DNA from: Methylobacter luteus IMV-B-3098
GTDB taxonomy: Bacteria; Pseudomonadota; Gammaproteobacteria; Methylococcales; Methylomonadaceae
Reading direction: 5' to 3'
Length of the DNA stretch: 24,000 nt
Assembly (NCBI RefSeq): GCF_000427625.1
Contig: NZ_KE386569.1
Coordinates: 3,856,313 to 3,880,312, forward strand
Numbering within the stretch: position 1 is the first letter of the stretch; every line of letters begins with the position of its first letter. This document shows positions 4,756-22,513 of this stretch, piece after piece. The notes beneath the pieces were generated by a model. The model searched no databases. It saw only the letters and a list, made by a program, of their open reading frames with translations, and had not been told where the DNA came from. A program made the position numbers and the translations under genes.

Positions 4756-4805
4756 AAACATCGAACAGGTTTGGCAATTTAAAACGTTAAATAAAGGGGC
4801 ATTAC

Positions 4806-5336: not shown

Positions 5337-5339
5337 GCC

Positions 5340-6836: not shown

Positions 6837-6935
6837 TGTTGATGCGCTTACGAGCCACGGAGCGAGCATTTTTTAAGAACGACGCTCCTGGCTTTTTTTG
6901 ATGTCTTAAAATAAATGTAAATAAAGGAGAGACAA

Positions 6936-7421
6936 ATGGCTGTAGATATGTTTATTAAAATCGGCGATTTAAAAGGTGAATCGCGCGATAAAACGCACAA
7001 AGATGAGATTGATGTTTTAGCCTGGAGCTGGGGGATGTCGCAATCAGGCACTACACACACAGGCGGCGGCGGCGGCGCGGGCAAAGTCAACGTACAGGAT
7101 ATATCGTTCACCAAATATGTCGATAAGTCTTCCGCGCCTTTGATGATGGCTTGCTGCAACGGCAAGCATTTTACCGATGCTACACTGGTGGTGCGCAAAG
7201 CCGGAGAGACGCCTCTGGAATATATCGTCATTAAGCTGACAGAAGTCATTGTAACCTCTGTCAGCACTGGCGGCAGCGGCGGCGAAGACAGATTGACCGA
7301 AAACGTTACGCTGAACTTCGCCAAGTTTGAATACGCTTATCAGCCTCAAAAAGCCGATGGCGCGAAAGATGGCGGCGTGATTGAGGCGAAATTTAATATC
7401 GCTGAAAACGCTAAAGAGTAA
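6936..7421 (+). CDS. hcp: Hcp (TssD) inner-tube protein
   Basis: 161 aa with the N-terminus MAVDMFIKIGDLKGESRDKTHKDEIDVLAWSWGMSQ, classic for Hcp. It has a strong SD aaggagag, its own upstream gap and a downstream terminator. Confidence 0.93.
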   Translation: MAVDMFIKIGDLKGESRDKTHKDEIDVLAWSWGMSQSGTTHTGGGGGAGKVNVQDISFTKYVDKSSAPLMMACCNGKHFTDATLVVRKAGETPLEYIVIKLTEVIVTSVSTGGSGGEDRLTENVTLNFAKFEYAYQPQKADGAKDGGVIEAKFNIAENAKE

Positions 7422-7429
7422 TGCTTAGG

Positions 7430-7467
7430 GCGCGAAGAAGGCGTAGTCCCTCTTCGCGCTGTTTTTT
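7430..7467 (+). terminator. Rho-independent terminator/attenuator downstream of hcp
   Basis: A GC-rich stem gcgcgaagaagg (7430-7441) pairs with ccctcttcgcgc (7448-7459), with one bulged base and loop cgtagt. It is followed immediately by tgttttttgcgtttt. Confidence 0.7.
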
Positions 7468-7518
7468 GCGTTTTAAACTCGAACCCAAAGCATTTTCTAT
7501 AATAAGAAGAATAAATCT

Positions 7519-8313
7519 ATGAAGCTTGCAGAGCAGCATTTACAAGAAGGTCGACTTCAGGAGTCACTGGCTGCGCTCCAGAGTCAAGTCCGCAAAGATC
7601 CCGCCAACCCTAAACTCAGGACGTTTCTATTTCAGCTGTTGACCGTTCTCGGCGAATGGGATCGCGCACTGACGCAACTGACTGTAGCGGGCGAGCTTGA
7701 TGCGGCGAATCTTCCCATGGTGCAGACCTACAGGGAAGCCATTCGCTGCGAGGTGCTACGTAAGGAAATTTTCTCAGGCCATAAGACGCCCGTGGTTTTT
7801 GGTGATCCCGCGCAGTGGATCGCACTCTTGCAGGAAGCGCTTAAACTGACCGCCGAAAATCGGTTCGCCGAAGCTAGAAATCTGCGCGATCAGGCTTTTG
7901 ATCTGGCGCCCGTAACCCCGGGATCGATTAACGGCGATGCCTTCAACTGGATAGCGGACGCCGATACCCGTCTGGGTCCCATGCTTGAAGCAATAGTCAA
8001 TGGCCGTTACTACTGGGTGCCGTTCCATCAGATTCGTGAGATTCATATTGAAGAACCGGCCGATCTGCGCGACTTTGTCTGGATGCCGGCGCATTTTACC
8101 TGGACAAATGGCGGCGAAGCCTTCGGCCTGATTCCCACCCGTTATCCAGGTTCGGAAACGGCCGATGAGCCGGCAATACGCCTGGCCCGCAAGACGCAAT
8201 GGCAGGAGTTGGCCGAGGAAACGTTCATCGGCCTGGGTCAGCGTTTATTGAGCACTGGCGAAAATGACTATGCGGTGATGGATGTTCGTGAAATCAAACT
8301 CAATGTGGATTAA
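7519..8313 (+). CDS. tagJ: TagJ (ImpE/SciE-family T6SS accessory protein)
   Basis: The N-terminus (LQEGRLQESLAALQSQVRKDPANPKLRTFLFQLLTVLGEWDRALTQLTVAGELD) closely resembles ImpE/TagJ1 as I remember it. Its position between hcp and tssE matches the H1-T6SS. Confidence 0.85.
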   Translation: MKLAEQHLQEGRLQESLAALQSQVRKDPANPKLRTFLFQLLTVLGEWDRALTQLTVAGELDAANLPMVQTYREAIRCEVLRKEIFSGHKTPVVFGDPAQWIALLQEALKLTAENRFAEARNLRDQAFDLAPVTPGSINGDAFNWIADADTRLGPMLEAIVNGRYYWVPFHQIREIHIEEPADLRDFVWMPAHFTWTNGGEAFGLIPTRYPGSETADEPAIRLARKTQWQELAEETFIGLGQRLLSTGENDYAVMDVREIKLNVD

Positions 8314-8459
8314 CCCGGGTTTGAAAAATTGACAACCTTTTGAACGGATTTAATGATACCGGAATGAAAATGCCGTCTATGTCGAACGTAACCCTGAATA
8401 CTTTTTGCTTTCTGTTCGATCCCGCGCGCCATGCCTGCCAGGAACAATAAGTAGAAACC

Positions 8460-8963
8460 ATGGCCGAACTCACCCAGAAAGAACGATTGCAACCCTCGCT
8501 GCTGGATCGGTTGACCGATGATGCTCCCGACAAGATACAGGAATCGCGCGACCAGCGCGTCTTGTCGCTGAGCAGATTGAGGCAGGGCGTATTGAGAGAC
8601 ATGGGCTGGCTGCTGAATACAGGCAGTCTGGATACTATCGAAAATTTTGACGGCTATCCTTTGGTTGCTGGCTCGGTCATCAATTACGGTATTCCCGACC
8701 TGGCCGGCACGACGCTATCGGGCGCCGATGTGCAGGAAATAGAGCGCCGCGTCCGTCAGGCCATCTGGGATTTTGAACCGCGCATCCTGCGCGACTCGGT
8801 CAAGGTTACCGTTATGGCTTCGGACGATCAGATGAATCATAACGCCATGACCTTCGACATAGAAGGCGATCTTTGGGCACAGCCGTTACCGCTACGCCTC
8901 TACCTTAGAACAGAACTCGATCTTGAGACAGGCAACATGGAAATTATCGATAGGGGCGGCTAA
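8460..8963 (+). CDS. tssE: TssE (gp25-like baseplate protein)
   Basis: 167 aa with the LQPSLLDRLTDDAP N-terminal motif of the GPW/gp25 T6SS lysozyme-like family. It lies directly upstream of tssF. Confidence 0.9.
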   Translation: MAELTQKERLQPSLLDRLTDDAPDKIQESRDQRVLSLSRLRQGVLRDMGWLLNTGSLDTIENFDGYPLVAGSVINYGIPDLAGTTLSGADVQEIERRVRQAIWDFEPRILRDSVKVTVMASDDQMNHNAMTFDIEGDLWAQPLPLRLYLRTELDLETGNMEIIDRGG

Positions 8964-8965
8964 TC

Positions 8966-10843
8966 GTGGACCCTCGATTACTAAAATACTACAACCGTGA
9001 GTTGCAGCACATCCGCGAAATGGGCGGCGAATTTGCGCGCGAATTTCCTAAAATTGCCGGCCGGCTGGGCCTGGACGAATTCGAATGCGCGGACCCCTAC
9101 GTCGAGCGTCTGCTGGAAGGATTCGCTTTCATGGCGGCGCGCGTCCAGCTCAAGGTCGATGCGGAATTTCCTCGCTTTACCCAACACCTGCTGGAAATGG
9201 TCTACCCGCATTATCTGGCGCCTACGCCGTCCATGACGGTCGTGCAATTTCAGCCCGACTTGTCGGAAGGGGCGCTCAACGAGGGCTTTCCGATTCCCAG
9301 GGAGACCTCTCTGCGCAGCCAGATCGGCAAGGGCGAGCAGACAGCCTGCGAATACCGTACCGCGCACGATCTGACCTTGTGGCCTCTGGAACTGGTGGAA
9401 GCAGAATATCTGGCCGGCGCCGGCGCCGTCGCCAACCTCGGCGCGCCGAGCCTGCCCGGTCTGAAAGCCGGCATCCGGCTGCGCCTGAGAACAACGGCGG
9501 GGCTGAAATTCAACCAGATCGCACTCAACAATCTGTCGCTCTATTTGCGCGGCGTCGGCGAACTGCCCATGCAGGTTTACGAGCAGATGCTGGCCAATAC
9601 GATTGCCGTGGTTGTGCAATCCACCCAACGACCTGCCGCCTGGCAACACGTCATCAGGGACGCGGCCGTCCGGCCGCTGGGATTTGAAGACAGTCAGGCG
9701 CTGCTGCCTTATGTCCCGCGTTCCTTCCAGGGCTACCGGTTGCTGCAGGAGTATTTCGCATTCCCCGAGCGCTTCATGTTCGTCGAGTTGACGCAGTTGC
9801 AGGAAGCCGTGCGGCAATGCGGCGACAGCGAGCTGGATATTATCATCCTGCTGAACCGCGGCAATCCGCAACTGATCAATTCAGTCGACGCGTCGCGCTT
9901 TGCCTTATTCTGCACGCCGGCCGTCAATATCTTCCCGAAACGAACCGACCGGATCCATTTGACGAACCAGACCGCCGAATACCATGTCGTTCCAGACCGG
10001 ACCCGGCCTCTGGATTACGAGGTCTATCGGGTGACCGAAGTGATGGGGTTTGGCAGCACCGCCGATGACAAGCAGGAATTTCTGCCTTTCTATCAAGCCA
10101 ATGCCGACGCCAGCCACAAGCATAGGCGAGCATACTATACGTTGATCCGGTCGCCGCGCGTCATCTCGTCCAAACAGCGGCAGTATGGCCCGCGCTCCAG
10201 TTATACGGGCAATGAAATCTATATCTCGCTGGTTGACGCCAATGAGGCGCCTTTTAACAGCGATCTGAGACAACTCGGTCTTGCCACGCTATGCACGAAC
10301 CGCGACTTGCCGCTGCAATTGCCTATCGGCGTCGGCGCGACCGATTTTACGATTCAGACCGGCGCTCCGGTTCAATCGATACGCTGTCTATCGGGCCCGA
10401 CCAGGCCGCGTCCTTCCAATGCGCATAAGGATACGGCCTGGAAACTGATCAGCCATCTGTCCCTGAACTATTTGACGATCGTCGATAACAACGAAAAGGA
10501 AGGCGCCATGGCGTTACGGAATCTGTTGTCGCTGTATGGCGAAAACAGCGACCCGGGCTTTCGCAAACAGATAGAGGGCGTGCTGTCGATTCAATCCAGG
10601 TCCATCGTCCGGCGCATCAATACCAAAGGGCCGATCGTGTTCGGACGCGGACTGGAAGTGTCGATCAATGTCGATGAAGCCGCCTTTGAAGGCAGCGGCG
10701 TATTTTTGCTGGGCACTGTGCTGGAGCAATTCTTTGCCCAGTACGTGTCTATCAACTCATTTACGGAAACGGTGTTGAAAACCAGCGACCGGGGCGAGGT
10801 AATGCGATGGCCGACGAGAATCGGACAGCGTCACATCATCTAG
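8966..10843 (+). CDS. tssF: TssF (ImpG/VasA) baseplate protein
   Basis: GTG start 2 nt after the tssE stop, with SD agggg upstream. The N-terminus YYNRELQHIREMGGEFAREFPKIAGRLG is typical of TssF. 625 aa. Confidence 0.92.
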   Translation: MDPRLLKYYNRELQHIREMGGEFAREFPKIAGRLGLDEFECADPYVERLLEGFAFMAARVQLKVDAEFPRFTQHLLEMVYPHYLAPTPSMTVVQFQPDLSEGALNEGFPIPRETSLRSQIGKGEQTACEYRTAHDLTLWPLELVEAEYLAGAGAVANLGAPSLPGLKAGIRLRLRTTAGLKFNQIALNNLSLYLRGVGELPMQVYEQMLANTIAVVVQSTQRPAAWQHVIRDAAVRPLGFEDSQALLPYVPRSFQGYRLLQEYFAFPERFMFVELTQLQEAVRQCGDSELDIIILLNRGNPQLINSVDASRFALFCTPAVNIFPKRTDRIHLTNQTAEYHVVPDRTRPLDYEVYRVTEVMGFGSTADDKQEFLPFYQANADASHKHRRAYYTLIRSPRVISSKQRQYGPRSSYTGNEIYISLVDANEAPFNSDLRQLGLATLCTNRDLPLQLPIGVGATDFTIQTGAPVQSIRCLSGPTRPRPSNAHKDTAWKLISHLSLNYLTIVDNNEKEGAMALRNLLSLYGENSDPGFRKQIEGVLSIQSRSIVRRINTKGPIVFGRGLEVSINVDEAAFEGSGVFLLGTVLEQFFAQYVSINSFTETVLKTSDRGEVMRWPTRIGQRHII

Positions 10844-11847
10844 AAGAGTCGCTAAGGAAAGAGCCGTATAAATACGGTTTTTTCCAGTTGATGCGCCTTC
10901 TGGAGTGCGCCTATCAGGATAAGCCCCGGCTGGGACGTTCGGCCCGGCCCGTCGATGATCCGGTCAGGCTGGGACAGGAGGTCTCGCTGACGTTCGAATC
11001 GTCCACGCTCAGTTCATTCACGCCAGGCAAGAACGGGCTCCCGCCGCGCCTGACCGGACGCTTTTTGGGCCTGTTCGGCGCCAATGGACCGCTGCCTCTG
11101 CACCTGACCGAATACGTTCGCGAAAGGATTCATCATTACCGCGATCACACGCTGGCGCGTTTCGCCGATATGTTCCATCACCGCATGATGTGTCTGTTTT
11201 ATCGCGCCTGGGCCGATACGGAACCGGCGGTTAACTTTGACCGGCCTGAATCCGACCGGTTTGCCGGCTATGTCGGTTCGCTGGCCGGACTGGGCCTGGA
11301 ATCCCTGCACGAGCGCGACGACATGCCCGACTTGGCCAAGCTCTATTACGCCGGTTATCTGTCGTGCCAGGCCAAACATGCCGAAGGGCTGAGGGCCATG
11401 CTGGCGGACTACTTCAGATTGCCCGTGAACATCGAGGAATTTGTCGGCGAATGGCTGGATATCCAGGCTTCCGATTTGACGCGACTGGGCGAGACGCCGC
11501 GAACCGGCGAGCTGGGCGTGTCGGCAATCCTGGGATCACGGGTCTGGGCATGCCAGCATAAATTCCGAATCCGCCTGGGGCCGTTGAGTCTGGCGGAATA
11601 TCAGAGTCTGTTGCCGACCGGCTATCGGATCGGGCAGCTGATTGCGGTAGTACGCAATTACATAGGCGATGAACTGGTCTGGGATGTCAATCTGGTTCTG
11701 AAAAGAGAACAAGTACCCGGCACCCGGCTGGATGGGCAAACGGGGTTGGGCTGGACCAGCTGGCTGGGCGACCGGCATGAGAGTGCCGATGCTGATGATT
11801 TGATGCTGAATCCTTTATGGAACGGCCTGACCGCAACGCAAGCATAA
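10807..11847 (+). CDS. tssG: TssG (ImpH/VasB) baseplate protein
   Basis: 346 aa with the EPYKYGFFQLMRLLE motif. It overlaps the tssF 3' end by 37 nt, which suggests translational coupling, and has SD gaggt upstream. Confidence 0.9.
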   Translation: MADENRTASHHLEESLRKEPYKYGFFQLMRLLECAYQDKPRLGRSARPVDDPVRLGQEVSLTFESSTLSSFTPGKNGLPPRLTGRFLGLFGANGPLPLHLTEYVRERIHHYRDHTLARFADMFHHRMMCLFYRAWADTEPAVNFDRPESDRFAGYVGSLAGLGLESLHERDDMPDLAKLYYAGYLSCQAKHAEGLRAMLADYFRLPVNIEEFVGEWLDIQASDLTRLGETPRTGELGVSAILGSRVWACQHKFRIRLGPLSLAEYQSLLPTGYRIGQLIAVVRNYIGDELVWDVNLVLKREQVPGTRLDGQTGLGWTSWLGDRHESADADDLMLNPLWNGLTATQA

Positions 11848-11875
11848 TAAAAAACAAAGTTCAATAGGGGGGAAA

Positions 11876-14614
11876 ATGACCGACATCAGTCGCGTGGCCC
11901 TGTTCGGAAAGCTGAACAGCGTATGTTACAAAGCAATAGAAGGCGCTACCGTATTTTGCAAAATGCGCGGCAATCCTTATGTGGAACTGGTGCATTGGCT
12001 GCACCAGATTCTACAGTTGCAGGATTCCGATCTGCATAAAATCATCCGTCAGTTCAATCTCGACCCGTCCCGGCTGGCCAAGGACTTTACCGATGCGCTG
12101 GACCGGCTGCCCAGAGGCTCCACATCCATTTCCGATCTGTCTTCGCACGTTGAGGAAGCCGTCGAGCGCGGCTGGGTTTTCGGCACGCTGATGTTTGGTG
12201 AATCGCAAGTCCGCTCGGGCCATCTGGTCGTCGGCATCCTGAAAACCAAGGGACTGACGCATGGCCTGCAAAGCATCTCCAGGGAATTCGACAAGATCAG
12301 GCCCGATACACTGACCGAGCGCTTTGCCGAAATCGTCAGCGGCTCGCCGGAAGAAGGCCTGCATGCCAGCGACGGCTTTCAGGTCGGCGGCGGCGCTGTG
12401 CCGGGCGAGGCCAGCGGCGCCATGTCGCCGGCGCAGATGGGCAGGCAGGAAGCGCTGAAACAGTTTACGGTCGATCTGACTGAACAGGCGCGGCAAGGCA
12501 AAATGGACCCGATCGTCGGGCGCGACGAGGAAATCCGCCAGGTGATCGACATCCTGATGCGCCGCCGCCAGAACAACCCGATCCTGACCGGCGAGGCCGG
12601 CGTCGGCAAGACCGCCGTGGTCGAAGGCTTCGCCCAGAAAATCGTCGCCGGCGACGTGCCGCCGTCCTTGCGCGATGTGTCGCTGCGCACGCTCGATGTC
12701 GGCCTGCTACAGGCCGGCGCCAGCATGAAGGGCGAGTTCGAAAACCGCCTGCGCCAGGTCATAGAAGAAGTTCAGTCATCGGAAAAGCCGATCATCCTGT
12801 TCATCGATGAAGCCCATACGCTGGTCGGCGCCGGCGGCGCGGCCGGCACCGGCGATGCGGCCAACCTGTTGAAACCGGCACTGGCGCGCGGCACCTTGCG
12901 TACGGTGGCCGCAACGACCTGGGCCGAATACAAGAAACATATCGAAAAAGACCCGGCCCTGACGCGCCGGTTCCAGGTCGTGCAGGTCCATGAACCGAGC
13001 GAGGAAAAAGCCATTCTGATGATGCGCGGCGTGGCTTCGGTCATGGAAAAGCATCATCAGGTGCAGGTGCTCGATGAAGCGCTGGAAGCGGCGGTCAGGC
13101 TGTCGCACCGCTACATTCCGGCCCGCCAGCTGCCGGATAAGTCAGTCAGCCTGCTCGATACGGCATCGGCCCGCGTCGCAATCAGCCAGCATGCCGTACC
13201 GGCCGAGGTGGACGACTGCCGCAAACGCATCGCGGCGCTGGAAACCGAGCTGGCCATCATCGGCCGTGAAAAAGCGGTCGGCATCGATATCAAAGACCGC
13301 GAAACGATTGCGGCTGAAAAGCTCGGCGCGGAAAAAGAGCGCCTGGGCAAACTGGAAGAACGCTGGAATGCCGAGCGCGAACTGGTCAGGAACATACTCG
13401 ACATCCGCAAGCAGCTGCGCGATCAGACCGGCAAAGTGGAAGGCACGGACAGCCCGCTTGAAAAAGCCGCCGACCGGGACCAGATCGCCGAAGCCGGCTC
13501 CACCCCTATCACGGCCGATGTCCCGCGCGCACAGTTGCTGGAGGAACTGAAAGCCTTGCAGGCCAAACTGCACGAACTGCAAGGCGAGACGCCGCTGATT
13601 CTGCCCAGCGTCGATGCGCAGGCCGTCGCGTCCGTGGTCGGCGACTGGACCGGCATCCCGGTCGGCCGCATGGTCAAGAATGAAATCGAAACCATCCTGA
13701 ACCTGGCCGATAACCTGGAACAGCGCATCATCGGCCAGCGCCATGCGCTGGACATGATCGCCAGACGCATCCAGACCTCGCGCGCCGGCCTGGACAATCC
13801 CAGCAAGCCCATCGGCGTCTTCATGCTGGCCGGCACTTCCGGCGTCGGCAAAACCGAAACGGCGCTGGCCTTGGCCGAGGCGCTGTACGGCGGCGAGCAG
13901 AACGTCATCACGATCAACATGAGCGAATACCAGGAAGCGCATACCGTGTCGACCTTGAAAGGCGCGCCTCCGGGCTACGTCGGCTACGGCGAAGGCGGCG
14001 TCCTGACCGAAGCGGTGCGCCGCCGTCCCTACAGCGTCGTGTTACTGGACGAAGTCGAAAAAGCCCATCCCGACGTGCATGAGATTTTCTTCCAGGTCTT
14101 CGACAAGGGCTGGATGGAAGACGGCGAGGGCAGGGTTATCGATTTCAAGAATACGCTGATCCTGCTGACCACGAACGCGGGCACGGACATGATCATGAAC
14201 CTGTGCAAGGACCCCGAACTCATGCCGGAACCAGAAGGCATCGCCAAAGCCTTGCGCGAGCCGCTGCTGAAAGTGTTCCCGCCGGCCTTGCTCGGACGCG
14301 TCGTCGTGATTCCTTACTATCCGCTCAGCGACGGAATGATCGCGGCGATTGCGCGGCTGCAGCTGGGCCGCATCGGAAAACGCATCGCCGAAAGCCATAA
14401 AGTGCCTTTTACTTACGATGATGACGTGGTCAAGCTCATCGCCGAGCGCTGCACGGAGCTGGAAAGCGGCGGCCGAATGATCGACGCGATTTTGACCAAC
14501 ACGGTGCTGCCGACCATCAGCCAGGAATTCCTGCACCGCATGATGGAAGGCAAGCCGATCGAGCGCGTGCATATCAGCGCGCAGGATGGCGAGTTTGGGT
14601 ATGGATTTGAGTGA
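11876..14614 (+). CDS. clpV: ClpV (TssH) AAA+ sheath-recycling ATPase
   Basis: 912 aa with a Clp N-domain, two Walker A motifs (GEAGVGKT and GTSGVGKT), and a coiled-coil middle region. An SD gggggg lies upstream. Its position after tssG is canonical. Confidence 0.93.
14251..14614 (+). repeat. Copy A (intact, inside clpV) of a ~360-nt direct repeat; copy B is at 16486-16840
   Basis: By hand alignment it is colinear with 16486-16840, with about 20 substitutions, one 11-nt indel and one 2-nt indel. The homology ends exactly at the stop codon. Confidence 0.9.
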
Positions 14615-14738
14615 AACCGAGAATGGTGGATGGAAAATGTTCTACTATCAGACCTGTTATATCAGGGTTATGGCATCTTCCAGACGCTTTCAAGCTTCGT
14701 ACTATTTACGATGTAAATGAATCCGTTAGGCATAAAAC

Positions 14739-15767
14739 ATGAAGATTTTTACTGAAGCATATAAAAAAGCGCAAGAAGTCATTGAAAAGAAAGAGTTTTC
14801 AGGCCCTGAATGGCAAAAGTTCCTGAAAGAGGAAGCGAAAATCAAAGGCTTGTTTGGACCGGATGGGTTTAGTACCGCTCATTTTAAAACGCCCGATAAA
14901 ATAAGGAAGAAAATAAATTCCGAGTCAACCAATGCATTGGTCAGATTTATAATTGGCGGCAAAAAAAGCGGTGACGTTGTTTATGAGGCAGCCAATAACA
15001 CGAATGATCTGGCCGGACTGAATGACAGAGCCGCCACACTGAAATTCGTCAAGCATTTATATAGAGCCCAAAAACGGGGTGGGCAGGATGTCTGGATTTA
15101 TTCGCCTCCGAAACAGCACACAGGATGGATTTTTGATGAGATCGCGGGGGGAAAGGAAACGGTTATAGCCAGGCTAAACATGGAAGAAGAACTGTTTTCG
15201 GACACTGACATGAAGAATATGTGCTCGGCACTTTCCCTGGCATTGAAAATATCCGAAGACACCAAAATAAAGCTCGCGGATAAAAGTGACAGCACAAAAA
15301 AAATTATCTGGCGTTGGTTCATGGATCAGGATTGCGGCGAAAAGGAACTCAACGGCGCCATCGCTAAATTGAGCGATGGATTCAAAAAGATTACCGATTG
15401 CTGCAACTCAAACACGCTGGTTTTTACCGATTATCCTGACTGGCGTACCCGTAGAAACACGCTTATGGGCGGCGCGATACCGGGTGGCGAGGGAGGCGGA
15501 TTTCCGATTATTTACATAGAAGGGGCCTTTACCGACCTGGCCAACCGGAGTGGAAATCTTTGGACCTGCGCCCGAACCATTATCCATGAGTTTTCTCATC
15601 ATGAGATCAAAACCAAGGATCATAAGTACAGGCATCAAGGATTAAAACCGGACAAGGCGAAATTGCCCTATGCAAAAGCCATCGATAATGCCGATAGCTG
15701 GGCCTGTTTTGCCGTGGATCTGGCCGGCTATATGCCGGAGTCTGACCGGAACAGTTTTCTTAAATAA
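14739..15767 (+). CDS. Aspzincin/M35-like zinc metallopeptidase-domain protein; candidate T6SS effector
   Basis: Three motifs are present: HEFSH (HExxH, nt 15585-15599), TKDHKY 4 residues later (matches the aspzincin GTxDxxYG third-ligand motif, nt 15612-15629), and NADSWACFA near the C-terminus (resembles the M35 NADSY motif). There is no signal peptide. The gene is AT-rich and is the first gene after clpV. Confidence 0.6.
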   Translation: MKIFTEAYKKAQEVIEKKEFSGPEWQKFLKEEAKIKGLFGPDGFSTAHFKTPDKIRKKINSESTNALVRFIIGGKKSGDVVYEAANNTNDLAGLNDRAATLKFVKHLYRAQKRGGQDVWIYSPPKQHTGWIFDEIAGGKETVIARLNMEEELFSDTDMKNMCSALSLALKISEDTKIKLADKSDSTKKIIWRWFMDQDCGEKELNGAIAKLSDGFKKITDCCNSNTLVFTDYPDWRTRRNTLMGGAIPGGEGGGFPIIYIEGAFTDLANRSGNLWTCARTIIHEFSHHEIKTKDHKYRHQGLKPDKAKLPYAKAIDNADSWACFAVDLAGYMPESDRNSFLK

Positions 15768-15877
15768 CGGGTGCTGCGCAGTCAGTCGAATCCGGCGATC
15801 CTGCCGATTGGCCGCACCCGAGGGCGAGTGACTTTCTTTTTTAACAGCACGTGCAGGCTGGGTTGGAGCTTTAGCGG

Positions 15878-15911
15878 AAACCCGGCATAGAGGGGCTCGA
15901 ATGCCGGGTTT
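15878..15911 (+). terminator. Perfect 11-bp hairpin (possible terminator or REP-like element) in a GC-rich spacer
   Basis: aaacccggcat (15878-15888) pairs with atgccgggttt (15901-15911) around a 12-nt loop. The T-tract is only short. A second 7-bp hairpin, gcgccgg/ccggcgc, lies at 15935-15951. Confidence 0.35.
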
Positions 15912-16001
15912 GTCAACACGACCTACTGTTAAAAGCGCCGGTGCCCGGCGCGGCAAACGGGATAAAAACCGCCCGTGCGTAACATCAGTTAAGTAATTTA
16001 C

Positions 16002-16481
16002 ATGGAAATTTTTTTGTTTTTTTATCGACATTCTTTAGTGCGCGCTCTGCTTGTGGCAGTAACGCTTTTTATTTTCCTGTATGGACAGGTGAAATATGCG
16101 TGCGCGCAACCAGATGTGGAAACAAGCCTGAATAATTCAGAAGAGGTTAAGGGTATGATGCAAGCTGATAGAATTCCACCCGCGGAAGTAGCGCCTGTCG
16201 TAATAGACGGCATGCGATACGAGGTTGTCCATTGGGGGAAGGAACGGGGTTTGGAGCAGAATGGGGGCTATATCGCTGCAATTGACGTTGCCAGCGGGCA
16301 GGAGCGTTGGCTATTAAAAATTTACGATGTCCAATACGATCCCGTGATGGAAGAGGATGTACAGGATATCTTTATTAAATCCATGACCAAGCCTTTTTTC
16401 AGCAAAAAGTTGAAAATCGTTGATGAGCTTGGCCGAAAGTATATTGTGGATACCACCGATCGATCTATACAACTGGAGTGA
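16002..16481 (+). CDS. Small secreted/periplasmic protein of unknown function; candidate immunity protein
   Basis: It has a hydrophobic N-terminus and an AxA-type cleavage context (LFIFLYGQVKYACA|QPD). There is no SD at the ATG at 16002; the in-frame GTG at 16038 (giving MRALLVAVTLFIF...) is an alternative start. No family was recognised. The stop lies 4 nt before the clpV remnant. Confidence 0.55.
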   Translation: MEIFLFFYRHSLVRALLVAVTLFIFLYGQVKYACAQPDVETSLNNSEEVKGMMQADRIPPAEVAPVVIDGMRYEVVHWGKERGLEQNGGYIAAIDVASGQERWLLKIYDVQYDPVMEEDVQDIFIKSMTKPFFSKKLKIVDELGRKYIVDTTDRSIQLE

Positions 16482-16485
16482 CAGG

Positions 16486-16840
16486 CTTGCGCGAGCCGCT
16501 GCTGGAAGTGTTCCCGCCGGCCTTGCTCGGACGCGTCGTCGTATCCGCTCAGCGACGGGATGATCGCGGCGATTGCGCGGCTGCAGCTGAGCCGCATCGG
16601 AAAACGCATCGCCGAAAGCCATAAAGTGCCGTTTACTTACGATGACGACGTGGTCAAGCTCATCGCCGAGCGCTGCACGGAGCTGGAAAGCGGGGCGGCC
16701 GCATGATCGACGCGATTCTGACCAATACGGTCCTGCCGGCCATCAGCCAGGAATTCCTGCACTGCATGATGGAAGGCAAGCCGGTTGAGCGCGTGCACGT
16801 CAGCGTACAGGACGGAGAGTTTGGGTATGGGTTTGAATAA
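16486..16840 (+). pseudogene. Displaced, frameshifted fragment of the clpV 3' end (corresponds to the last ~120 codons)
   Basis: It aligns to 14251-14614. An 11-nt deletion after 16542 removes gattccttact (clpV 14308-14318). A 2-nt insertion lies within 16691-16703. In the clpV frame a stop is reached at 16622-16624. There is no upstream coding sequence or start. The fragment ends at taa 16838-16840, equivalent to the clpV stop. Confidence 0.9.
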
Positions 16841-17054
16841 ATTCATTCTATTAAAAACGTTATAGGATGATGATATGCCACTGCAAAAATACAAGACCTG
16901 AGCTTTTAGCTCCCCAAAGTCGGTGGGCAGACAGCGCTGCCCATCTTACACGGCTTTAGGTAAGCTCCTCTATGCGGGGATAGCCGGGGTTGATGCACTC
17001 TTCCCACTGTATCATTGGGAGCGTGGTGTCTTAATTAGATAAGGAATTATAAAA

Positions 17055-18014
17055 ATGGTATGGCACGTTAATGATATAGATTCTGCGGTAGCAAACTCGC
17101 AGCCCCTGGTATGTTATCAACAACATGGTCAATACTTTATTGATCCAGCATGGGCGGGCGGAGGCAATAACCCCTTTACGTTAAACCCTGATCAATACAC
17201 AGTAGTATTGATAGCGAAAGTAAATGGCGTATTCTTTGGACGATTCTTAAACAATGGATTGCCTCGCACAATTAGTGAGCCTACCAAACCAATTAATCCT
17301 TCACTAAAGCCTGAACTAGGCATAACGAAGACATCGAAGCAAGCAATTGAAAGAGCAGAAGAAAAAAAGTTAAAGGCTATCAGGCAGTACAAAAAAGATC
17401 AGGTAAGTTACGAAAAGAATTTGAAAAATTATAATAATTATCTTGTACAAGTAAATGCTCAGACTTTTAATCATAGCCATGGCAGCGGGACACATGCGGA
17501 GGATGCTTTTCTTAGCGCTTGGGACGCTGCGGTTAAAAAAGGAACCATCGGTCAGCTAAAGGAACGGTGTAACAACAAGCTCTATGTCACAATCAAATTA
17601 TCGAAATCTCCATGCCAAGTTTGTGCTCCAAAACTCATTGCATTCAAGAAAAAGAGCAACGATATTTTTCTCCGTATTAAGACTCAAGCGATTTATGAAG
17701 GTGACGGGGGTATAAATGTTAATACCTTAGAAATAAAAAAGATGATAGGTGAAGGAATAGCGGTTCGTAGCTGGCATATTCCGTTCCATAGCAATAAACA
17801 TCAAAAAAATGGTGCTAAAACGAAATCGGGTATGCTACATGAACTCTCCGGCTGGGCATTCGATGAGGATGACGCATTTCACAAGTTGTTGCTTGAAGAT
17901 TTAAACATAAAGAAGGCTAAATTCGATAATAAAATGGCAAAGGGTGCAAGTTCCTATGCGCCAGAGAATCTAGAGCAAAGATATAAAGAGCTATCAAGAA
18001 ATTATAAAGGGTGA
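17055..18014 (+). CDS. Zinc-dependent deaminase-superfamily protein (HAE...PCxxC); candidate nucleic-acid deaminase toxin/T6SS effector
   Basis: H147-A-E149 (nt 17493-17501) sits in GTHAEDAFLSAW. P186-C-Q-V-C190 (nt 17610-17624) sits in NKLYVTIKLSKSPCQVCAPKLIAF. The beta-strand-then-PCxxC-helix context matches TadA and AID/APOBEC-type cores, with 36 residues between the motifs. SD aagga lies upstream, and the gene is about one-third GC by spot count. Confidence 0.7.
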   Translation: MVWHVNDIDSAVANSQPLVCYQQHGQYFIDPAWAGGGNNPFTLNPDQYTVVLIAKVNGVFFGRFLNNGLPRTISEPTKPINPSLKPELGITKTSKQAIERAEEKKLKAIRQYKKDQVSYEKNLKNYNNYLVQVNAQTFNHSHGSGTHAEDAFLSAWDAAVKKGTIGQLKERCNNKLYVTIKLSKSPCQVCAPKLIAFKKKSNDIFLRIKTQAIYEGDGGINVNTLEIKKMIGEGIAVRSWHIPFHSNKHQKNGAKTKSGMLHELSGWAFDEDDAFHKLLLEDLNIKKAKFDNKMAKGASSYAPENLEQRYKELSRNYKG

Positions 18015-18114
18015 CTATCAGAAAGCAGGCCCTGTATTTTGCATTTTATGTTTTTTGGCCAAAACTTAAACTGATCCTGTTGATTTGATTATTTTGATTA
18101 TTATTAAGTAAACA

Positions 18115-18194
18115 ATGAGTCGCCCACTTCGGCTAGAGTTTGCAGGCGTTTGTATCATGTAACCTCTCGGGGCAATGAGGAAAAGCCAATTTAG
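18115..18194 (+). pseudogene. N-terminal remnant of an IS200/RAYT-like Y1 transposase (COG1943-type), frameshifted and truncated
   Basis: The ATG at 18115 gives MSRPLRLEFAG. After a 1-nt frame slip near 18148-18150 the sequence reads LYHVTSRGNEEKPI and then stops at 18192-18194. PLR(I/L)E(F/Y)xGAxYHVxxRGN is the conserved N-terminus of this transposase family as I remember it. The remainder of the gene is absent. Confidence 0.5.
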
Positions 18195-18275
18195 TCAGCA
18201 TACAGGATCGGAAATATCCGGGTTTCTCACCATAATTTACAAGCTTTTATTACCATTTTTTGAGGGCTTACATTC

Positions 18276-19286
18276 ATGCCGCATTTTGAAAACAGCTTTA
18301 ACCCAAACACTGATGTCATTTACGGAACAGGACTCTGGATTCATATTTATCTCTACAATTATTATTTCAGATGGCCGTACGGGTACCCCGAGATCAGGAA
18401 AGACGACCTGAGATTAAGCGTGAAGTTTCCAAAGGGAGAATACGAGTCGCAGATGGCTGCCGCGCATGATAGATACGGGCTCAACGTCATAAACCTGTAT
18501 AACGAGCCAATTACCCCAAAAAGCTTCAATGTCAGCAACGACAAAAAAGTGGGCAAGCCGAATTTCGGACAGGTAAACCAAAAAGATAAAACCACGGAAA
18601 AATTAGCCCAAGATTATTTTGACAGCCTTGTAGACTGCAAGCATTACGGGCCCGAGTCAGTCGAGGGGCAGATCACTGAACGCCTGATACGGTCTTTGAA
18701 AAAATATCAGGATAGCAACTCATTGAATTTTAGTCAGAATCTATCGGGCAGAGGGTCGAAGAAGGTTGCGTTTGATCTTTATGATGTATGCATCAGGCGA
18801 TCCTGCAAATTTGGAATATATTATTTCACGGGCATCAAGAGTGCGAAATTGCATTATATTCTCGATGAGATGGATATTGGTGCCATAGTGAATAAAAGCA
18901 CAATGAAAAATGAAACGACTCAAAAGAGCAAGGTTCCAATTTGCACCTCGGAAGTCCGCTATATTTTTCGCCACTGGAATTCCTTGCGAAACGGTTCGGT
19001 ATATTTTTATCTAGACTTCCAGTTGTGCCCCTCTCCTTGGGAACATGACAAATGGAAGCAGCATTTTCCGGATTGGGCTAGATATGCAGAGTCCCGGGTC
19101 CAAAAATACCGCAAGCAGATACTGGCCGGTATGAATAACCTTGCGATTCTAAATAGATTTGATGAGTGTTCAGATGCTTTTACTCAATCGCCGAATGCTA
19201 TGAATGCAAAGAAGGTAATCAACGCTTTCCATGATTTACCCGTTAATTTGGTGAACAGCCCATCCGATGATACGGCCAAGATCTAG
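18276..19286 (+). CDS. Hypothetical 336-aa cytoplasmic protein (no family recognised); possible immunity protein or second effector
   Basis: It is a long uninterrupted AT-rich ORF with SD gaggg about 10 nt upstream. There is no signal peptide or TM segment, and I could identify no catalytic motif. Confidence 0.55.
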   Translation: MPHFENSFNPNTDVIYGTGLWIHIYLYNYYFRWPYGYPEIRKDDLRLSVKFPKGEYESQMAAAHDRYGLNVINLYNEPITPKSFNVSNDKKVGKPNFGQVNQKDKTTEKLAQDYFDSLVDCKHYGPESVEGQITERLIRSLKKYQDSNSLNFSQNLSGRGSKKVAFDLYDVCIRRSCKFGIYYFTGIKSAKLHYILDEMDIGAIVNKSTMKNETTQKSKVPICTSEVRYIFRHWNSLRNGSVYFYLDFQLCPSPWEHDKWKQHFPDWARYAESRVQKYRKQILAGMNNLAILNRFDECSDAFTQSPNAMNAKKVINAFHDLPVNLVNSPSDDTAKI

Positions 19287-19485
19287 CCGATTATGGATAA
19301 ACATAAGCGCTCCTATACTGATATTCTCAAGAAATAAATGTCGGCAAGCTTCCATTGATGGTTCAATAGCGTCCCGAAGTCATGCTGCAGAATTCAAAAC
19401 GGATTAGCGTTATTACGCAAGCCGGGATGGTTGATAGGCAGAATGTGACCAACCATGCATTTTCTTTTCCAGCGGAATACTTGAG

Positions 19486-19512
19486 CAGGACGGGGTTTAT
19501 AACCCCGTCCTG
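19486..19512. other. Perfect 12-bp inverted repeat (hairpin) in a non-coding border region
   Basis: caggacggggtt (19486-19497) pairs with aaccccgtcctg (19501-19512) around loop tat. It lies 200 nt downstream of the last cassette ORF and has no convincing T-tract. Confidence 0.4.
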
Positions 19513-19915
19513 AATGTTTCGAAACCGTTCTCCGGTGGTAATTACAATTCTAAAGGATGAGGTTTCCCACCGGCGCAATGTTTGCGATGCTCGATATCCG
19601 CGCGGAAACTCCGGAAATCGAGAAATTCACTATTGGGAATGAAGCGCTTCGGGATCGGCTATGTTTCGACCGCTGCGACGGGGGGGATGCCTCATCGCGC
19701 TCGAAGCAGCTGATTGACTTACTCTCCCTGCCATCACTATGCCTGTTTTGGCATCTTGTCGTCGGGCAGGACTATAAGTGGCATCAACCTGGGAAGTGCA
19801 AGTCAGGAATCTAAGCAATAAGCCATAATCCATAGTGTGCTATCAAGATTAACTATAATTCACCGAACTAAGCAACCAGTAAATCTGGTCAGGTAGATGC
19901 GAGAATTGGAATATT

Positions 19916-21265
19916 ATGAACCGCAATAAACGACGGCTTGCAGCCAAGCAAAGCAAGCGGCAAAAACAGGCCAATCCGGGCAGCGCCTTACCATCGGCGA
20001 TCAGCCTGCATCAAAAGGGGCAGCTGGGCGAGGCCGAGAAAATCTATCGGTCGATTCTGGCAAGGCAGCCGGATAATCCCGACGCGCTGCATTTCCTCGG
20101 CGTGCTGCTGCATCAGACCGGCCAAAGCGACAAGGCCATCGCCAGCGTTAATCAGGCGCTCCGAATCAATCCATCCTACCTGGACGCCTGCAATAATCTG
20201 GGCAATATCTATAAAGAGACAGGCGACATGCAAAAGGCGGCCGAGACGTATCGAAAGGTGATTGACATGGCGCCCGACCATGCCGGTGCCTGCAACAATC
20301 TGGGTGTGGTGCTCAGAAATTTGGGCGCATACGAGGAATCGGTGCGCGCATTGCTGAAAGCCGCCGAGCTAAGCCCGGACAATGCCGATGTTTTCCAGAA
20401 TCTCGGCAATAGCTATCAGGAGCAGGACGAATACGACAAGGCGGCCGTTGCCTACCAGCAAGCCATTGCCATAAAACCGCACCACAAATACGCCTATGAG
20501 AGTTTATGGCGGATGATGTTAAAAACGGGCCAGCCCGATCAAGCCATGGATGTTTTGCGACGCTGGATCCAGGCTGACCCGGAAAATCCGATTGCCAGGC
20601 ACCATTTTTCCGCCTGTATGGGCGAAAATATTCCCGACCGGGCTTCACAGGCTTACATACAGGACATCTTCGATAAGTTTGCGGCCAGCTTCGACACAGT
20701 GCTGAACAGGCTCGATTATCGGGCGCCCGAGTTGGTCACGCAGGCCGTATCCGTTCTGTTCCCCGACCCCCGACCAGCCCTCAGGATGCTGGACGCAGGC
20801 TGCGGAACCGGACTGTGCGGACCTTTGTTGCGGCCTTATGCCCGCATGCTGGTCGGGGTTGACCTGTCTTCCGGCATGCTGAACAAAGCCAGGGGGCGTA
20901 ACCTCTATGACGACCTGGTCGAAGCCGATCTGGTGGACTATTTAAGCCGATACGAAGCCGCTTTCGATGTGATCGTCTCCGCTGATACACTGGTTTACTT
21001 TGGCGAGCTCGGCCCTTTTCTACAGGCTGCCGCGCGTGCTCTGGCTTCAGCGGGCTGCCTGGTTTTTACTGTGGAAAAAAGCGACGAAAACAGCGGCAAC
21101 GGCTTTAAATTGAACCCTCATGGCCGTTATGCGCATACGCATGAGTATATAAAGACTACCTTGACGGCGTGGGGCTTCGATATGCGTGCGGCGGACACGG
21201 TTGTGCTGCGCAAGGAGGCCGGTCAACCCGTGACTGGCTTGCTGGTGACGGCGACCTTAAAATAA
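19916..21265 (+). CDS. TPR-repeat protein fused to a class I SAM-dependent methyltransferase domain
   Basis: The N-terminal half has repeated TPR-like units (AEKIYRSILARQPDNPDALHFLGVLL, etc.). The C-terminal half has SAM motif I LDAGCGTGLCG plus VGVDLS and FDVIVSADTLVYFG. Confidence 0.8.
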   Translation: MNRNKRRLAAKQSKRQKQANPGSALPSAISLHQKGQLGEAEKIYRSILARQPDNPDALHFLGVLLHQTGQSDKAIASVNQALRINPSYLDACNNLGNIYKETGDMQKAAETYRKVIDMAPDHAGACNNLGVVLRNLGAYEESVRALLKAAELSPDNADVFQNLGNSYQEQDEYDKAAVAYQQAIAIKPHHKYAYESLWRMMLKTGQPDQAMDVLRRWIQADPENPIARHHFSACMGENIPDRASQAYIQDIFDKFAASFDTVLNRLDYRAPELVTQAVSVLFPDPRPALRMLDAGCGTGLCGPLLRPYARMLVGVDLSSGMLNKARGRNLYDDLVEADLVDYLSRYEAAFDVIVSADTLVYFGELGPFLQAAARALASAGCLVFTVEKSDENSGNGFKLNPHGRYAHTHEYIKTTLTAWGFDMRAADTVVLRKEAGQPVTGLLVTATLK

Positions 21266-21595
21266 ACGCCGCTCATCACATACCCGGGGAGTCGCTATTT
21301 TTGCGAAAGCCTGTTTAGGGGCATCCCAGCCCCAGCAAGGGGTCGAAACTTAGGCCCCCCACATGACTTGACGCCGTTTCGCGATGCCTTTTTTCATTGG
21401 AAAGCCCCTTGAATTGTTGCGCTCATTGGCATGAAGCAGCGCATTATGTTTTATTATTATCGTGCGGGATGAAATATCGGTCACCGCTTGTTTTTGAAGC
21501 TAACCGGTCATTCTCCAATTTATCCGATCCATGTTTATAGGGAAAGCCTGTAACCCGCTAATGAAAGAGAGCAGATTCAACCTTATATCCGTTCC

Positions 21596-22453
21596 ATGAA
21601 AATGCGCCATTACCTATGGGTATCCGCCATGCTGTTAAGCTCATGCGCGACGCCTTCCGAGCGTTTTGCCCAGGCGGCAAGCGCCTTGGGTCTTAAGGAG
21701 CTGACGCTCAGAACCGACCGGTTCGCGCACCGGATCTATCACCGTGCCGGCATCAGCAAAAACACAGCGGATAAGACGCTGCACGTTTATCTGGACGGCG
21801 ACGGCTCGCCTTGGCTGCAGAAGCGCTGGATCGCGGACGATCCAACTTCGCGCAATCCAATAATACTGAAGCTGATAGCGCAGGATAGCGCGCCTTCCAT
21901 TCTGCTGGGCCGGCCCTGCTATCACGGTTTCAGTCATACTGAACCCTGCCATAATAAATTCTGGACATCGCACCGCTATTCGGCGCCAGTCGTTGAAAGC
22001 ATGGCGTCGGCCCTGGTCCAATGGCTTGAAACGGCTGATTTTAATGAGATCGCGCTGATCGGCTACAGCGGCGGCGGCACGCTGGCAGTGCTCATCGCAC
22101 CTTACATCGATAAAGTCAAAACCGTCGTGACGGTGGCGGCCAACCTTGATGTCAAGTCCTGGAGCGAACTGCACGGCTATATGCCAATCAGTGGTTCGTT
22201 AAACCCGGTATCCGGTCCCTTGCTGCCATCCTCCATCAGGCAGTTTCATTTTACCGGCGGCAAGGATGATAACGTGCCGCCGTTCATTACCGATGCCTTC
22301 GTCAAATCCCGCAACGGCGGGCAGGCTATTGTCTATAGCGATTTCGACCATCAATGCTGCTGGGCCGAAGCGTGGCCTTCGATACTTGAAAAAATCCAGT
22401 CGTGTTGCGCCAGCGAGGGGCTTTCCGGGTTCGGCAGACTGTACGATCAATGA
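21596..22453 (+). CDS. Alpha/beta-hydrolase-fold lipoprotein
   Basis: It has a signal peptide with lipobox LLSS|C (MKMRHYLWVSAMLLSSCATP), a nucleophile-elbow-like motif IGYSGGG, and D/H residues in the C-terminal part. Confidence 0.6.
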   Translation: MKMRHYLWVSAMLLSSCATPSERFAQAASALGLKELTLRTDRFAHRIYHRAGISKNTADKTLHVYLDGDGSPWLQKRWIADDPTSRNPIILKLIAQDSAPSILLGRPCYHGFSHTEPCHNKFWTSHRYSAPVVESMASALVQWLETADFNEIALIGYSGGGTLAVLIAPYIDKVKTVVTVAANLDVKSWSELHGYMPISGSLNPVSGPLLPSSIRQFHFTGGKDDNVPPFITDAFVKSRNGGQAIVYSDFDHQCCWAEAWPSILEKIQSCCASEGLSGFGRLYDQ

Positions 22454-22513
22454 ACACCGTCCCAGAAAGTTGTCTGATCGGCTTGGCCGCCGCTTTCAAA
22501 AGGGCATCAGCTG

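Follow-up and report, generated by a model that had tools for sequence, protein, structure and literature searches.

The 24,000-nucleotide (nt) stretch of the Methylobacter luteus IMV-B-3098 genome analyzed here (contig NZ_KE386569.1, positions 3,856,313 to 3,880,312; hereafter, the window) carries a type VI secretion system (T6SS) cluster, in which the ATPase gene clpV is the last conserved core gene ahead of a variable cargo region, and within this cargo region lies a second, degenerate copy of the clpV 3' end. We propose that the array probably arose by serial homology-anchored capture of cargo at the 3' end of clpV, whereby a cassette encoding an M35 metallopeptidase would have entered clpV first and a block encoding an AID/APOBEC-like deaminase would have entered later, using the pseudogenized clpV tail (hereafter, the scar) that the first event left behind.

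The intact clpV gene (also termed tssH; 11876-14614, plus strand) encodes a 912-amino acid (aa) protein with the Pfam domains AAA_2 (4.7e-54), AAA_lid_9, and ClpB_D2-small. Its last ~121 codons (copy A, 14248-14614, plus strand), as delimited by self-comparison and alignments, are repeated downstream as a clpV-tail pseudogene (copy B, 16483-16840, plus strand). A repeat finder applied to the window against itself returned three colinear blocks, 14248-14307/16483-16542 (97% identity, spacing 2235), 14318-14469/16542-16693 (97%, spacing 2224), and 14468-14615/16694-16841 (89%, spacing 2226), and the spacings therefore correspond to an 11-nt deletion, which removed the equivalent of clpV 14307-14317 after position 16541, and a 2-nt insertion (GG, 16692-16693). 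MAFFT and a global aligner agree on 23 mismatches in 355 aligned nt (93.5% identity), and the codon differences in the clpV frame comprise 12 synonymous ones plus the change of stop codon and 8 non-synonymous ones. The frameshift in copy B leads to a premature stop at 16622-16624; with a net indel length of -9, the last segment is back in the frame of the first. Perfect homology between the copies starts at 16486, which is 4 nt past the stop codon (16479-16481) of orf159, the second gene of the M35 cassette, and similarity ceases at both clpV stop codons (TGA at 14612-14614 and TAA at 16838-16840), beyond which the 3' sequences are unrelated. The CAGG that follows the orf159 stop belongs to the cassette, because it is common to the homologous cassette of Methylomicrobium album. 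The illegitimate junction that joins the end of the M35 cassette to clpV 14248-14251 occupies 16482-16485 (plus strand), and it shares with the second right-hand joint of the array, at 18193, the feature that at most 2 bases are common to the joined sequences. The cargo genes are free-standing open reading frames (ORFs) with their own start codons, located 124, 214, and 67 nt behind their respective tails. These measurements bear out the first-pass annotation of this DNA, made from the sequence without database searches, which had placed a colinear clpV-tail copy at 16486-16840 with about 20 substitutions in some 350 nt, the same two indels, the same broken frame, and the same boundaries, had counted about 12 synonymous against 7 non-synonymous codons, and had called the intervening cassette AT-rich (the G+C content is 0.37-0.50 in the cargo versus 0.55-0.66 in the cluster).

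The mismatches between the two copies are unevenly distributed, with 6 of them in 14249-14470 (2.8%) versus 16 in 14471-14611 (11.3%; Fisher p=6e-4); orthologue pairs show only a 1.2-1.3-fold difference in divergence between these two segments. By the Nei-Gojobori method, the copies are separated by 14 synonymous and 8 non-synonymous differences, that is, 0.168 per synonymous site (pS) and 0.030 per non-synonymous site (pN), with a pN/pS ratio of 0.18. This ratio rejects neutral decay (P=8e-5) as well as the minimum ratio of 0.5 that applies when one copy is selected and the other drifts (P=0.015), and an in-situ duplication is disfavored because the latter expectation fails. The two tails are diverged functional alleles that were joined by recombination. 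In comparison with 40 relatives, copy B shows four radical replacements (A>G, K>E, G>S, R>C) at positions that are invariant among them, and copy A shows two private, conservative, lineage-specific changes (V>I, V>A). Neither tail is measurably closer to the tails of the M35-linked loci L163, L164, and L165 or of the related locus L081; all of them are 73-82% identical, and the donor is therefore not identifiable from these tails.

The repeat is not a product of misassembly. The source assembly is an isolate genome on a 4.5-Mb contig, and two independent short-read contigs from the Logan collection (L161 and L162, run SRR3945502) start at equivalent points of the repeat (16664 and 14440, respectively) and each connect a diverged tail with the cargo behind it: L162 leads from tail A into the M35 gene, and L161 leads from tail B into the deaminase gene and is 100% identical to window positions 16664-21871. 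Moreover, the joint between orf159 and the equivalent of clpV 14248 occurs without a single base change in L168, a metagenome contig of a different sample (described below), and such a novel joint cannot be made by collapsed repeats. A fragment of the same kind also recurs in another isolate genome.

Partial copies of clpV are present in further T6SS clusters. We collected 160 clpV loci from genomes and metagenomes and scanned each of them, along with the window (161 loci in all), for extra pieces of its own clpV. Five clpV-tail fragments were detected in 4 of the 161 loci, a frequency that comes from one clpV clade only. Each of the five follows clpV, has the orientation of that gene, and extends to the ClpV C-terminus; on the left, they begin at different points (ClpV residues 707, 791, 798, 841, and 852). 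The isolate Thiorhodococcus drewsii AZ1 (L071) has one fragment of 72 codons; the metagenome contig L137 has a 115-codon fragment (94.5% nt identity) that brackets a ParE toxin-antitoxin pair; and the metagenome contig L088 contains two fragments of 61 and ~200 codons in the order clpV, Uma2, scar, M35 with its immunity gene, scar, Tlde1 with its immunity gene. Compared with the live tails of their own loci, the L071, L137, and L088 fragments show pN/pS ratios of 0.08-0.20 at pS values of 0.20-0.59, and every one of them is incompatible with the duplication model (P<=1e-3). The cassette bracketed in L137 (1092-1587) is a ParE-type toxin-antitoxin pair and contains no T6SS effector; the capture mechanism is therefore not specific to secreted cargo.

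The live clpV gene of the window is itself affected. The closest relative of the whole cluster is L081, whose ClpV and TssC proteins are 95% and 97% identical to those of the window (the ClpV identity to Methylococcales genomes is 88-89%). The two loci are colinear over window positions 3631-14612 at 86.6% nt identity, and the similarity ends at the clpV stop codon, behind which L081 has different small genes, including an orphan orf159-like gene. A maximum chi-square scan placed a breakpoint within clpV near 14160: identity to L081 is 90.8% ahead of it and 80.2% behind it, and pS increases from 0.32 to 0.57 some 450 nt ahead of the stop codon (Fisher p=3.7e-6); the clpV 3' end is a mosaic against L081. 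The ratio of pS in the last 450 nt to that in the rest of the gene is 1.84 for this pair, versus 0.60-1.46 in 134 related clpV control pairs; since it tops all 134 of them, the jump in 3' divergence is not a general property of clpV. When pairs were divided by the coverage of 1500 nt downstream of clpV, the median 3'/5' pS ratio was 1.18 for pairs with different cargo (n=15) versus 0.97 for pairs with the same cargo (n=91; one-sided Mann-Whitney p=0.015, or 0.034 without the window pair), which suggests, in pairs that are phylogenetically non-independent, that different cargo goes along with a higher ratio; dividing the pairs by their coverage in the first 300 nt gave a noisy result without significance. 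The proposals of the first-pass annotation that two functional clpV alleles were joined rather than one copy decaying in situ, that clpV served as the homology arm, and that its 3' end is discordant with the rest of the gene are all upheld by these comparisons. Its authoring model knew of no description of clpV as an anchor, and we likewise found no report of clpV/tssH fragments or of clpV in this role among ~8 million searchable full texts, a search that does not prove absence.

The order of events can be approached through L168, a 3.9-kb contig (Ga0620859_0007831) of metagenome 3300078453 that is 96-97% identical to the window and was found in a search with the TPR-methyltransferase, whose protein there is 98% (97.8%) identical. 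It matches window positions 15946-16512 at 96%, including the orf159/scar junction and the scar-specific bases at the equivalents of clpV 14250 and 14270. A private 128-nt deletion follows after 16512, and then the clpV tail continues up to the equivalent of 14589, lacking the GG insertion and encoding Arg rather than Cys at 14537. From there the contig jumps to window positions 18194-21293, which it matches at 97%. The segment missing from L168 (16816-18193) extends from the end of copy B through the spacer and the deaminase gene to the stretch 18015-18193; orf336 and the methyltransferase gene are kept. The exact point where L168 rejoins the window is marked by a 16-17-nt remainder of a clpV tail (relic C, 18193-18209, plus strand, AGTCAGCATACAGGATC, equivalent to clpV 14573-14589), which lies 67 nt upstream of orf336. 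Relic C matches the tail of copy B at 13 of 15 positions, a score reached in 1.8% of 500 shuffles, and the scar tail of L168 at 15 of 16 positions, including the L168-private A at the equivalent of 14579.

Differences were assigned to branches over the 204 nt that are common to tail A, copy B, and L168. Seven substitutions are specific to copy B, all of them at the equivalent of 14476 or later and five of the seven at third codon positions (P=0.045); six changes are specific to L168, of which two are radical, and these look neutral; nine changes separate tail A from the scar lineage of copy B and L168. A-like and B-like sites interleave in L168, even at the adjacent positions 14572 and 14573, and this pattern therefore points to three alleles rather than to conversion patches; an origin of the L168 mosaic by gene conversion alone was rejected on the same ground. 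Copy B appears to be a hybrid, in which the left part (to ~16701) would represent the old scar allele as found in L168 and the right part (16702-16840) a third allele. According to the first-pass annotation, the deaminase was the resident cargo displaced by the M35 cassette. This is probably wrong, given that L168 has the scar junction without the deaminase and that relic C precedes orf336: the deaminase is probably the newest cargo, and the cargo displaced by the M35 cassette was probably orf336. The comparison with L168 suggests that the presumed newest block may lie inside the array, and not beside the anchor gene, because it entered via the scar.

Thus, we propose the following course for these events. 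An incoming block from a related T6SS cluster, bounded on the left by a clpV tail and bearing foreign cargo to the right of it, would pair through its tail with the resident clpV tail and undergo a homologous crossover there, and its right end would be joined illegitimately slightly further 3' in the resident tail, a route known as homology-facilitated illegitimate recombination (HFIR). The clpV gene would be kept intact with an end that is now donor-derived, and the remainder of the resident tail would become a pseudogene scar, shifted downstream together with the resident cargo. In the older event, common to L168, a clpV-tail/M35/orf159 block would have crossed over in clpV upstream of 14248 and would have been joined by its right end at 14248, leaving the resident tail as a scar ahead of orf336. 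In the later event, confined to the M. luteus lineage, a block composed of a clpV tail, the 214-nt spacer, the deaminase gene, and a short remnant would have entered the scar and not the live gene, with the crossover within scar positions 16506-16701 and the right joint at the equivalent of 14574 (window 18193). Copy B would then combine the old scar with the newly orphaned allele, and relic C would be the rest of the old scar tail. The anatomy of the junctions is that of HFIR: the left crossovers fall within tail homology, as seen in the two-zone divergence and in the hybrid copy B, and the right joints lie near the anchor and show minimal homology.

The reverse order has to be weighed against this scheme. 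If the window-type array were ancestral, L168 would have lost the deaminase by recombination between scars and a third scar would later have been trimmed to 16 nt, which would make the deaminase the older cargo and come nearer to the model of the first-pass annotation. The loss of an effector with retention of its neighbour is the usual pattern in T6SS arrays (PMC5361080), a truncated Tlde1 gene stands beside an intact immunity gene in L085, orf336 is under purifying selection in both strains, and the L168 junction falls exactly within the 15-16 nt common to tail B and relic C, as in a repeat-mediated deletion. However, this order needs two events, since besides the deletion in L168 the third scar of M. 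luteus must separately have been cut back precisely to the joint, and it treats as coincidence that an indel marks the boundary between the two zones and that B-specific changes cluster in the final third of the tail with a bias to third positions; we consider it unlikely, although worth keeping in sight. An arrangement in mirror image, with the homologous anchor on the right (for example, the TPR-methyltransferase gene or orf336), an illegitimate joint on the left, and the clpV fragment as a hitch-hiking flank of the donor, would agree with the scar-free order clpV, M35, immunity gene, TPR-methyltransferase in L006, L111, and L163, a possible resident state, and with the ends of both scar-preceding M35 cassettes (in the window and L088) within ~5 nt of the immunity gene stop. 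It is nevertheless improbable, for it gives no account of relic C on the right of the deaminase block or of a hybrid copy B with the L168 scar allele on its left, and a mosaic 3' end of the live gene is not what it would lead one to expect. Tandem duplication of the clpV 3' end in situ, followed by neutral decay and by unrelated replacement of the genes in between, draws on three observations: tails A and B share lineage-specific residues that are absent from all relatives, they are mutually closest relatives, and the older scar allele is only ~4% from tail A. Set against these are the pN/pS ratio reported above, with 5 non-synonymous versus 11 synonymous differences in the last 141 nt, the rejection of the model in the other three loci, and the fact that it offers no source for the unrelated cargo, all of which leave it a very small probability. 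Finally, the architecture resembles that of site-specific integrative elements such as e14 in icd, where the end of the live gene comes from the insert and the displaced remnant stays behind. A replacement 3' end brought by such an element is scarcely credible here: the variable left ends of the five fragments and the lack of any integrase, transposase, or recombinase domain in Pfam and NCBIfam searches of the 14615-19900 ORFs argue against it, and the cassette is just 1.9 kb long. An assembly artefact deserves equally little credence, because independent contigs reproduce the tails with their cargo, L168 contains the novel junction, and a fragment recurs in an isolate genome. Movement of the M35 cassette together with a pre-existing right-hand scar by homologous recombination alone was also considered and rejected, as no other genome has the junction before a different cargo.

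Several points weigh against serial capture as proposed here. No genome with clpV directly followed by the deaminase was present in the databases searched, nor did they contain a close relative of this protein, and the inserted deaminase block has no obvious immunity gene, as would matter if the deaminase is an antibacterial toxin. The older scar allele alone differs from tail A at only ~7-9 of 204 sites, with roughly equal numbers of synonymous and non-synonymous changes, so that the first event alone is indistinguishable from a local duplication; its reconstruction draws on the other loci and on the parallel to the presumed second event. The L168 contig includes neither the live clpV nor the M35 gene, and the polarity of the deaminase insertion rests on parsimony (one event versus two) and on 7 substitutions with P values of 0.02-0.05. 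The HFIR route, in turn, is read from junction anatomy only, no recombination having been directly observed, and the cargo association of the clpV 3' ends carries the non-independence stated above.

The first captured cassette in the proposed scheme encodes an M35 (aspzincin) metallopeptidase (14739-15767, plus strand), a stand-alone protein of 342 aa that matches the Pfam family Aspzincin_M35 (PF14521) with 5.3e-15 and 56.5 bits versus a cut-off of 30 and represents a candidate periplasm-acting T6SS effector, and the orf159 product (16002-16481, plus strand), a candidate immunity protein with no match in Pfam or NCBIfam and an N-terminal hydrophobic, signal-like segment as judged by eye. The M35 protein has more than 200 homologues, and the closest ones, in L164 (83%) and L163 (77%), are both encoded directly behind clpV. 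Homologues of orf159 adjoin M35 genes in at least six loci, namely L002, L006 (twice), L088, L111, L163, and L165 (three times). Experiments have established that M35 toxin domains with a periplasmic immunity protein act as T6SS effectors (PMC10673891), and the genomic pairing of M35 with orf159 fits such an effector/immunity pair, making these the candidate roles of the two proteins. Relatives with alternative cargo at the clpV junction had been anticipated in the first-pass annotation, and one of the two expected arrangements exists: M35 and its partner directly follow clpV in L006 (two in tandem), L111, L138, L163, and L164, whereas clpV directly followed by the deaminase is the arrangement absent from the databases searched, as stated above. 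In Crenothrix (L002), the M35 cassette is located between tssG and clpV. The complete Methylomicrobium album BG8 chromosome (L165, 5713-13796) has four M35 cassettes stacked behind clpV without scars, of which one encodes a truncated peptidase (234 aa), one is frameshifted along with its partner gene, and two are intact; cassettes therefore also accumulate by a route that leaves no anchor fragment. Homology among the cassettes begins ~30 nt ahead of the M35 start and ends 4 nt past the stop of the partner gene. Between the clpV stop and M35, the spacers of the window, L163, and L164 show no conservation, and the age of the clpV-M35 adjacency can therefore not be dated from it.

The spacer between M35 and orf159 (15768-16001) is unusually long (234 nt), the two genes being adjacent or overlapping in L002, L006, L088, and L163. 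It holds a perfect 11-bp inverted repeat (AAACCCGGCAT...ATGCCGGGTTT), and the short-read contig L162 ends inside it at ~15879, which suggests a dispersed repeat element. Its predicted fold is only weakly better than that of shuffled sequences (z=-2.1) and is uninformative on expression.

The second cargo gene of the window (17055-18014, plus strand) encodes a 319-aa protein, a candidate T6SS cargo, with the HAE...PCxxC motif and a match to the Pfam family APOBEC_N (3e-10; 40.8 bits versus a cut-off of 25). In an alignment of 22 members of this family, 21 of which match APOBEC_N, the residues H147, E149, P186, C187, and C190 are invariant, and these motifs and the profile match class the protein as an AID/APOBEC-like zinc deaminase, with a putative activity. 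Both this gene and the M35 gene are full length in the window, with intact catalytic motifs. The deaminase family is very rare, with 28 members in a full HMMER scan of 1.84e9 protein representatives, and in a word-index search of 5.8e9 proteins the window protein matched only itself. One homologue carries a core domain of extracellular contractile injection systems (eCIS) and two carry F-box-like domains, which hints that members of the family may be injected, possibly eukaryote-directed, effectors. The deaminase gene is followed by a degenerate remnant (18115-18191, plus strand; MSRPLRLEFAG...), directly adjoining relic C, that may represent the right end of the putative incoming block. By weak colinear tblastn matches (75% over 12 aa and 50% over 14 aa, E=0.58), it resembles the N-terminus of a 52-codon ORF located just upstream of the scar in T. 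drewsii (L071, 14201-14356), a homologue of which lies just before the TPR-methyltransferase gene in L115 (9389-9544). The remnant looks like the N-terminus of an IS200/RAYT-type transposase, a resemblance that Pfam did not confirm.

The presumed resident cargo, orf336 (18276-19286, plus strand), is a gene of 336 codons that is kept both in the window and in L168, where its product is 97.9% identical (pS 0.060, pN 0.010). The protein has no match in Pfam, NCBIfam, or PDB sequences; it may either confer immunity to the deaminase or be an effector in its own right. In Dyella nitratireducens (L040), two ORFs follow clpV (12751-14666), and the second of them (13830-14666) is a clear orf336 homologue (28.5% identity over 207 aa). 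The product of the first one ends in a FYVE zinc finger (1.4e-12), which is a eukaryotic phosphoinositide-binding module, and shows a weak similarity to orf336 (pairwise E=0.043) around H-x-x-L...T-S-E-L/V-R-Y...F-Y.

The complete window encodes, according to Pfam, the C-terminal part of TssM, TagF-PP2C, TssA, TssB, TssC, Hcp, TagJ, TssE, TssF, TssG, and ClpV, followed by M35, the 159-codon ORF, the second tail, the deaminase, the 336-codon ORF, and a small ORF, beyond which are located genes for a TPR-methyltransferase, a hydrolase, and, in convergent orientation, a Ser/Thr kinase. The TPR-methyltransferase gene (19916-21265, plus strand; Pfam TPR and Methyltransf families) forms the conserved right-hand border of the cargo: its homologues occur 3' of clpV or of cargo in at least 15 loci and directly after clpV in L024, L063, and L069, and two further loci found through this gene (L169 and L170) have a non-T6SS context and are uninformative. 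The cargo between clpV and the next conserved gene, which encodes either a ~650-aa VgrG or the TPR-methyltransferase, differs in every relative. Two of them show classic scars of the kind 'effector lost, immunity kept' in this region, namely a C-terminal Tlde1 remnant adjoining an intact immunity homologue in L085 (4425-5105) and an orphan orf159-like immunity gene without any M35 gene in L081 (11858-12241). Neither vgrG nor a PAAR gene is present in the window from clpV to the kinase gene (14615-22500); DUF6931-PAAR-VgrG or the ~650-aa VgrG is found there in L001, L005, L006, L010, L012, L163, and L165. At 2071-3615, TagF and a PP2C phosphatase are fused in a 514-aa ORF (TagF_N 2e-49, PP2C_2 7e-11), which unites two post-translational regulators of the T6SS. 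The kinase ORF near the window edge (22514-23977, minus strand) has 487 aa versus 588-634 aa in L001, L163, and L169 and matches only positions 102-252 of the kinase-domain profile, and may have undergone an N-terminal truncation or a frameshift. Across 14400-19400, scans for promoters and terminators yielded fewer sites than in shuffled sequences and are uninformative on expression; exact-sequence look-ups of ClpV and orf159 gave no match, probably because of differing called starts.

T6SS effector repertoires decide the coexistence of strains, and the exchange of cargo in main clusters has mostly been inferred from presence/absence patterns. The window and its relatives add footprints to such patterns, including the discordant last ~450 nt of clpV, the pseudogene tails between cargo genes, and a sister strain that differs by exactly one cargo gene, with breakpoints set by the scars, and these would give a concrete mechanism by which free-living methanotrophs and purple sulfur bacteria stack weapons. 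Fragments of the last core gene's tail may also serve as a simple bioinformatic marker for recently acquired T6SS cargo of an unknown family, such as the deaminase. A broader and speculative idea, which we hold to be rather doubtful, is that scars act as neutral landing pads in a recombinase-free, RecA-driven capture of cassettes by T6SS main clusters. If true, tail-bearing blocks could enter either the live gene or, sparing clpV, a scar, and arrays would grow from the inside; cassettes with two tails could moreover loop out and move between related clusters by homologous recombination alone, like an integron without an integrase.

Among known systems, integrative elements that supply a substitute 3' end of their target gene, such as e14 or phage 21 in icd and the islands in tRNA and tmRNA genes, resemble the window in that the live gene ends in sequence from the insert and the displaced end is found downstream, with differences that are mostly synonymous. 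They use an integrase and a fixed core site, however, whereas here no recombinase was detected and the breakpoints vary between loci. The M35 cassette can be compared with the Pseudomonas aeruginosa VgrG2b metallopeptidase toxin and its periplasmic immunity protein PA0261 (PMC10673891), as both combine an M35 peptidase with a small exported partner, export of the partner being predicted here from the signal-like segment noted above; in contrast to VgrG2b, the peptidase of the window is not fused to VgrG, in line with the cargo region having no vgrG. HFIR was described in natural transformation (de Vries and Wackernagel, 2002; Prudhomme et al., 2002; Meier and Wackernagel, 2003, as cited in PMC5361080). 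The window shares with it the combination of one homologous crossover and a nearby joint of no homology or microhomology, resulting in a foreign insertion with a small loss from the recipient; HFIR has been defined experimentally, whereas here it is deduced from the anatomy of the junctions.

The closest parallels are the displacement arrays to which the first-pass annotation had pointed. In rhs and cdiA loci, displaced C-terminal regions persist as orphan rhs-CT/rhsI and cdiA-CT/cdiI modules (Jackson, 2009; Poole, 2011; Koskiniemi, 2014, as cited in PMC5361080). Common to these loci and the window are partial copies of the 3' conserved region of the upstream gene, in the same orientation and each with a different cargo, which come from diverged, horizontally transferred alleles, and, as proposed for the window, the distal displacement of older modules. 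The differences are that what is repeated here belongs to no toxin gene but is the tail of the gene for a structural AAA+ ATPase, that the cargo consists of separate ORFs with their own starts rather than in-frame C-terminal domains, so that a displaced module can be expressed without re-fusion, and that one scar has apparently been reused as an entry point, which is the most novel and least secure element of our proposal. In Vibrio cholerae, T6SS effector-immunity modules are displaced and orphan immunity genes form arrays, for which HFIR has been proposed (Kirchberger et al., 2017, PMC5361080). A one-sided upstream homology anchor, an illegitimate joint at the other end, and the diversification of T6SS cargo are shared with the window, and its relatives likewise include an orphan immunity gene (L081) and a truncated effector (L085). 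The anchors in V. cholerae, however, are hcp, vgrG, and adaptor regions of auxiliary clusters or vgrG-3, whereas here the anchor is clpV in the main cluster; and there the old effector is destroyed and only immunity genes accumulate, whereas the window keeps the anchor fragment and whole cassettes, effector loss with retained immunity being seen in L085, L081, and possibly L168. The array thus appears to work like the rhs/cdiA and Vibrio arrays while being a member of neither group, and it would extend their displacement principle to an anchor that is not a toxin, a spike, or an adaptor.

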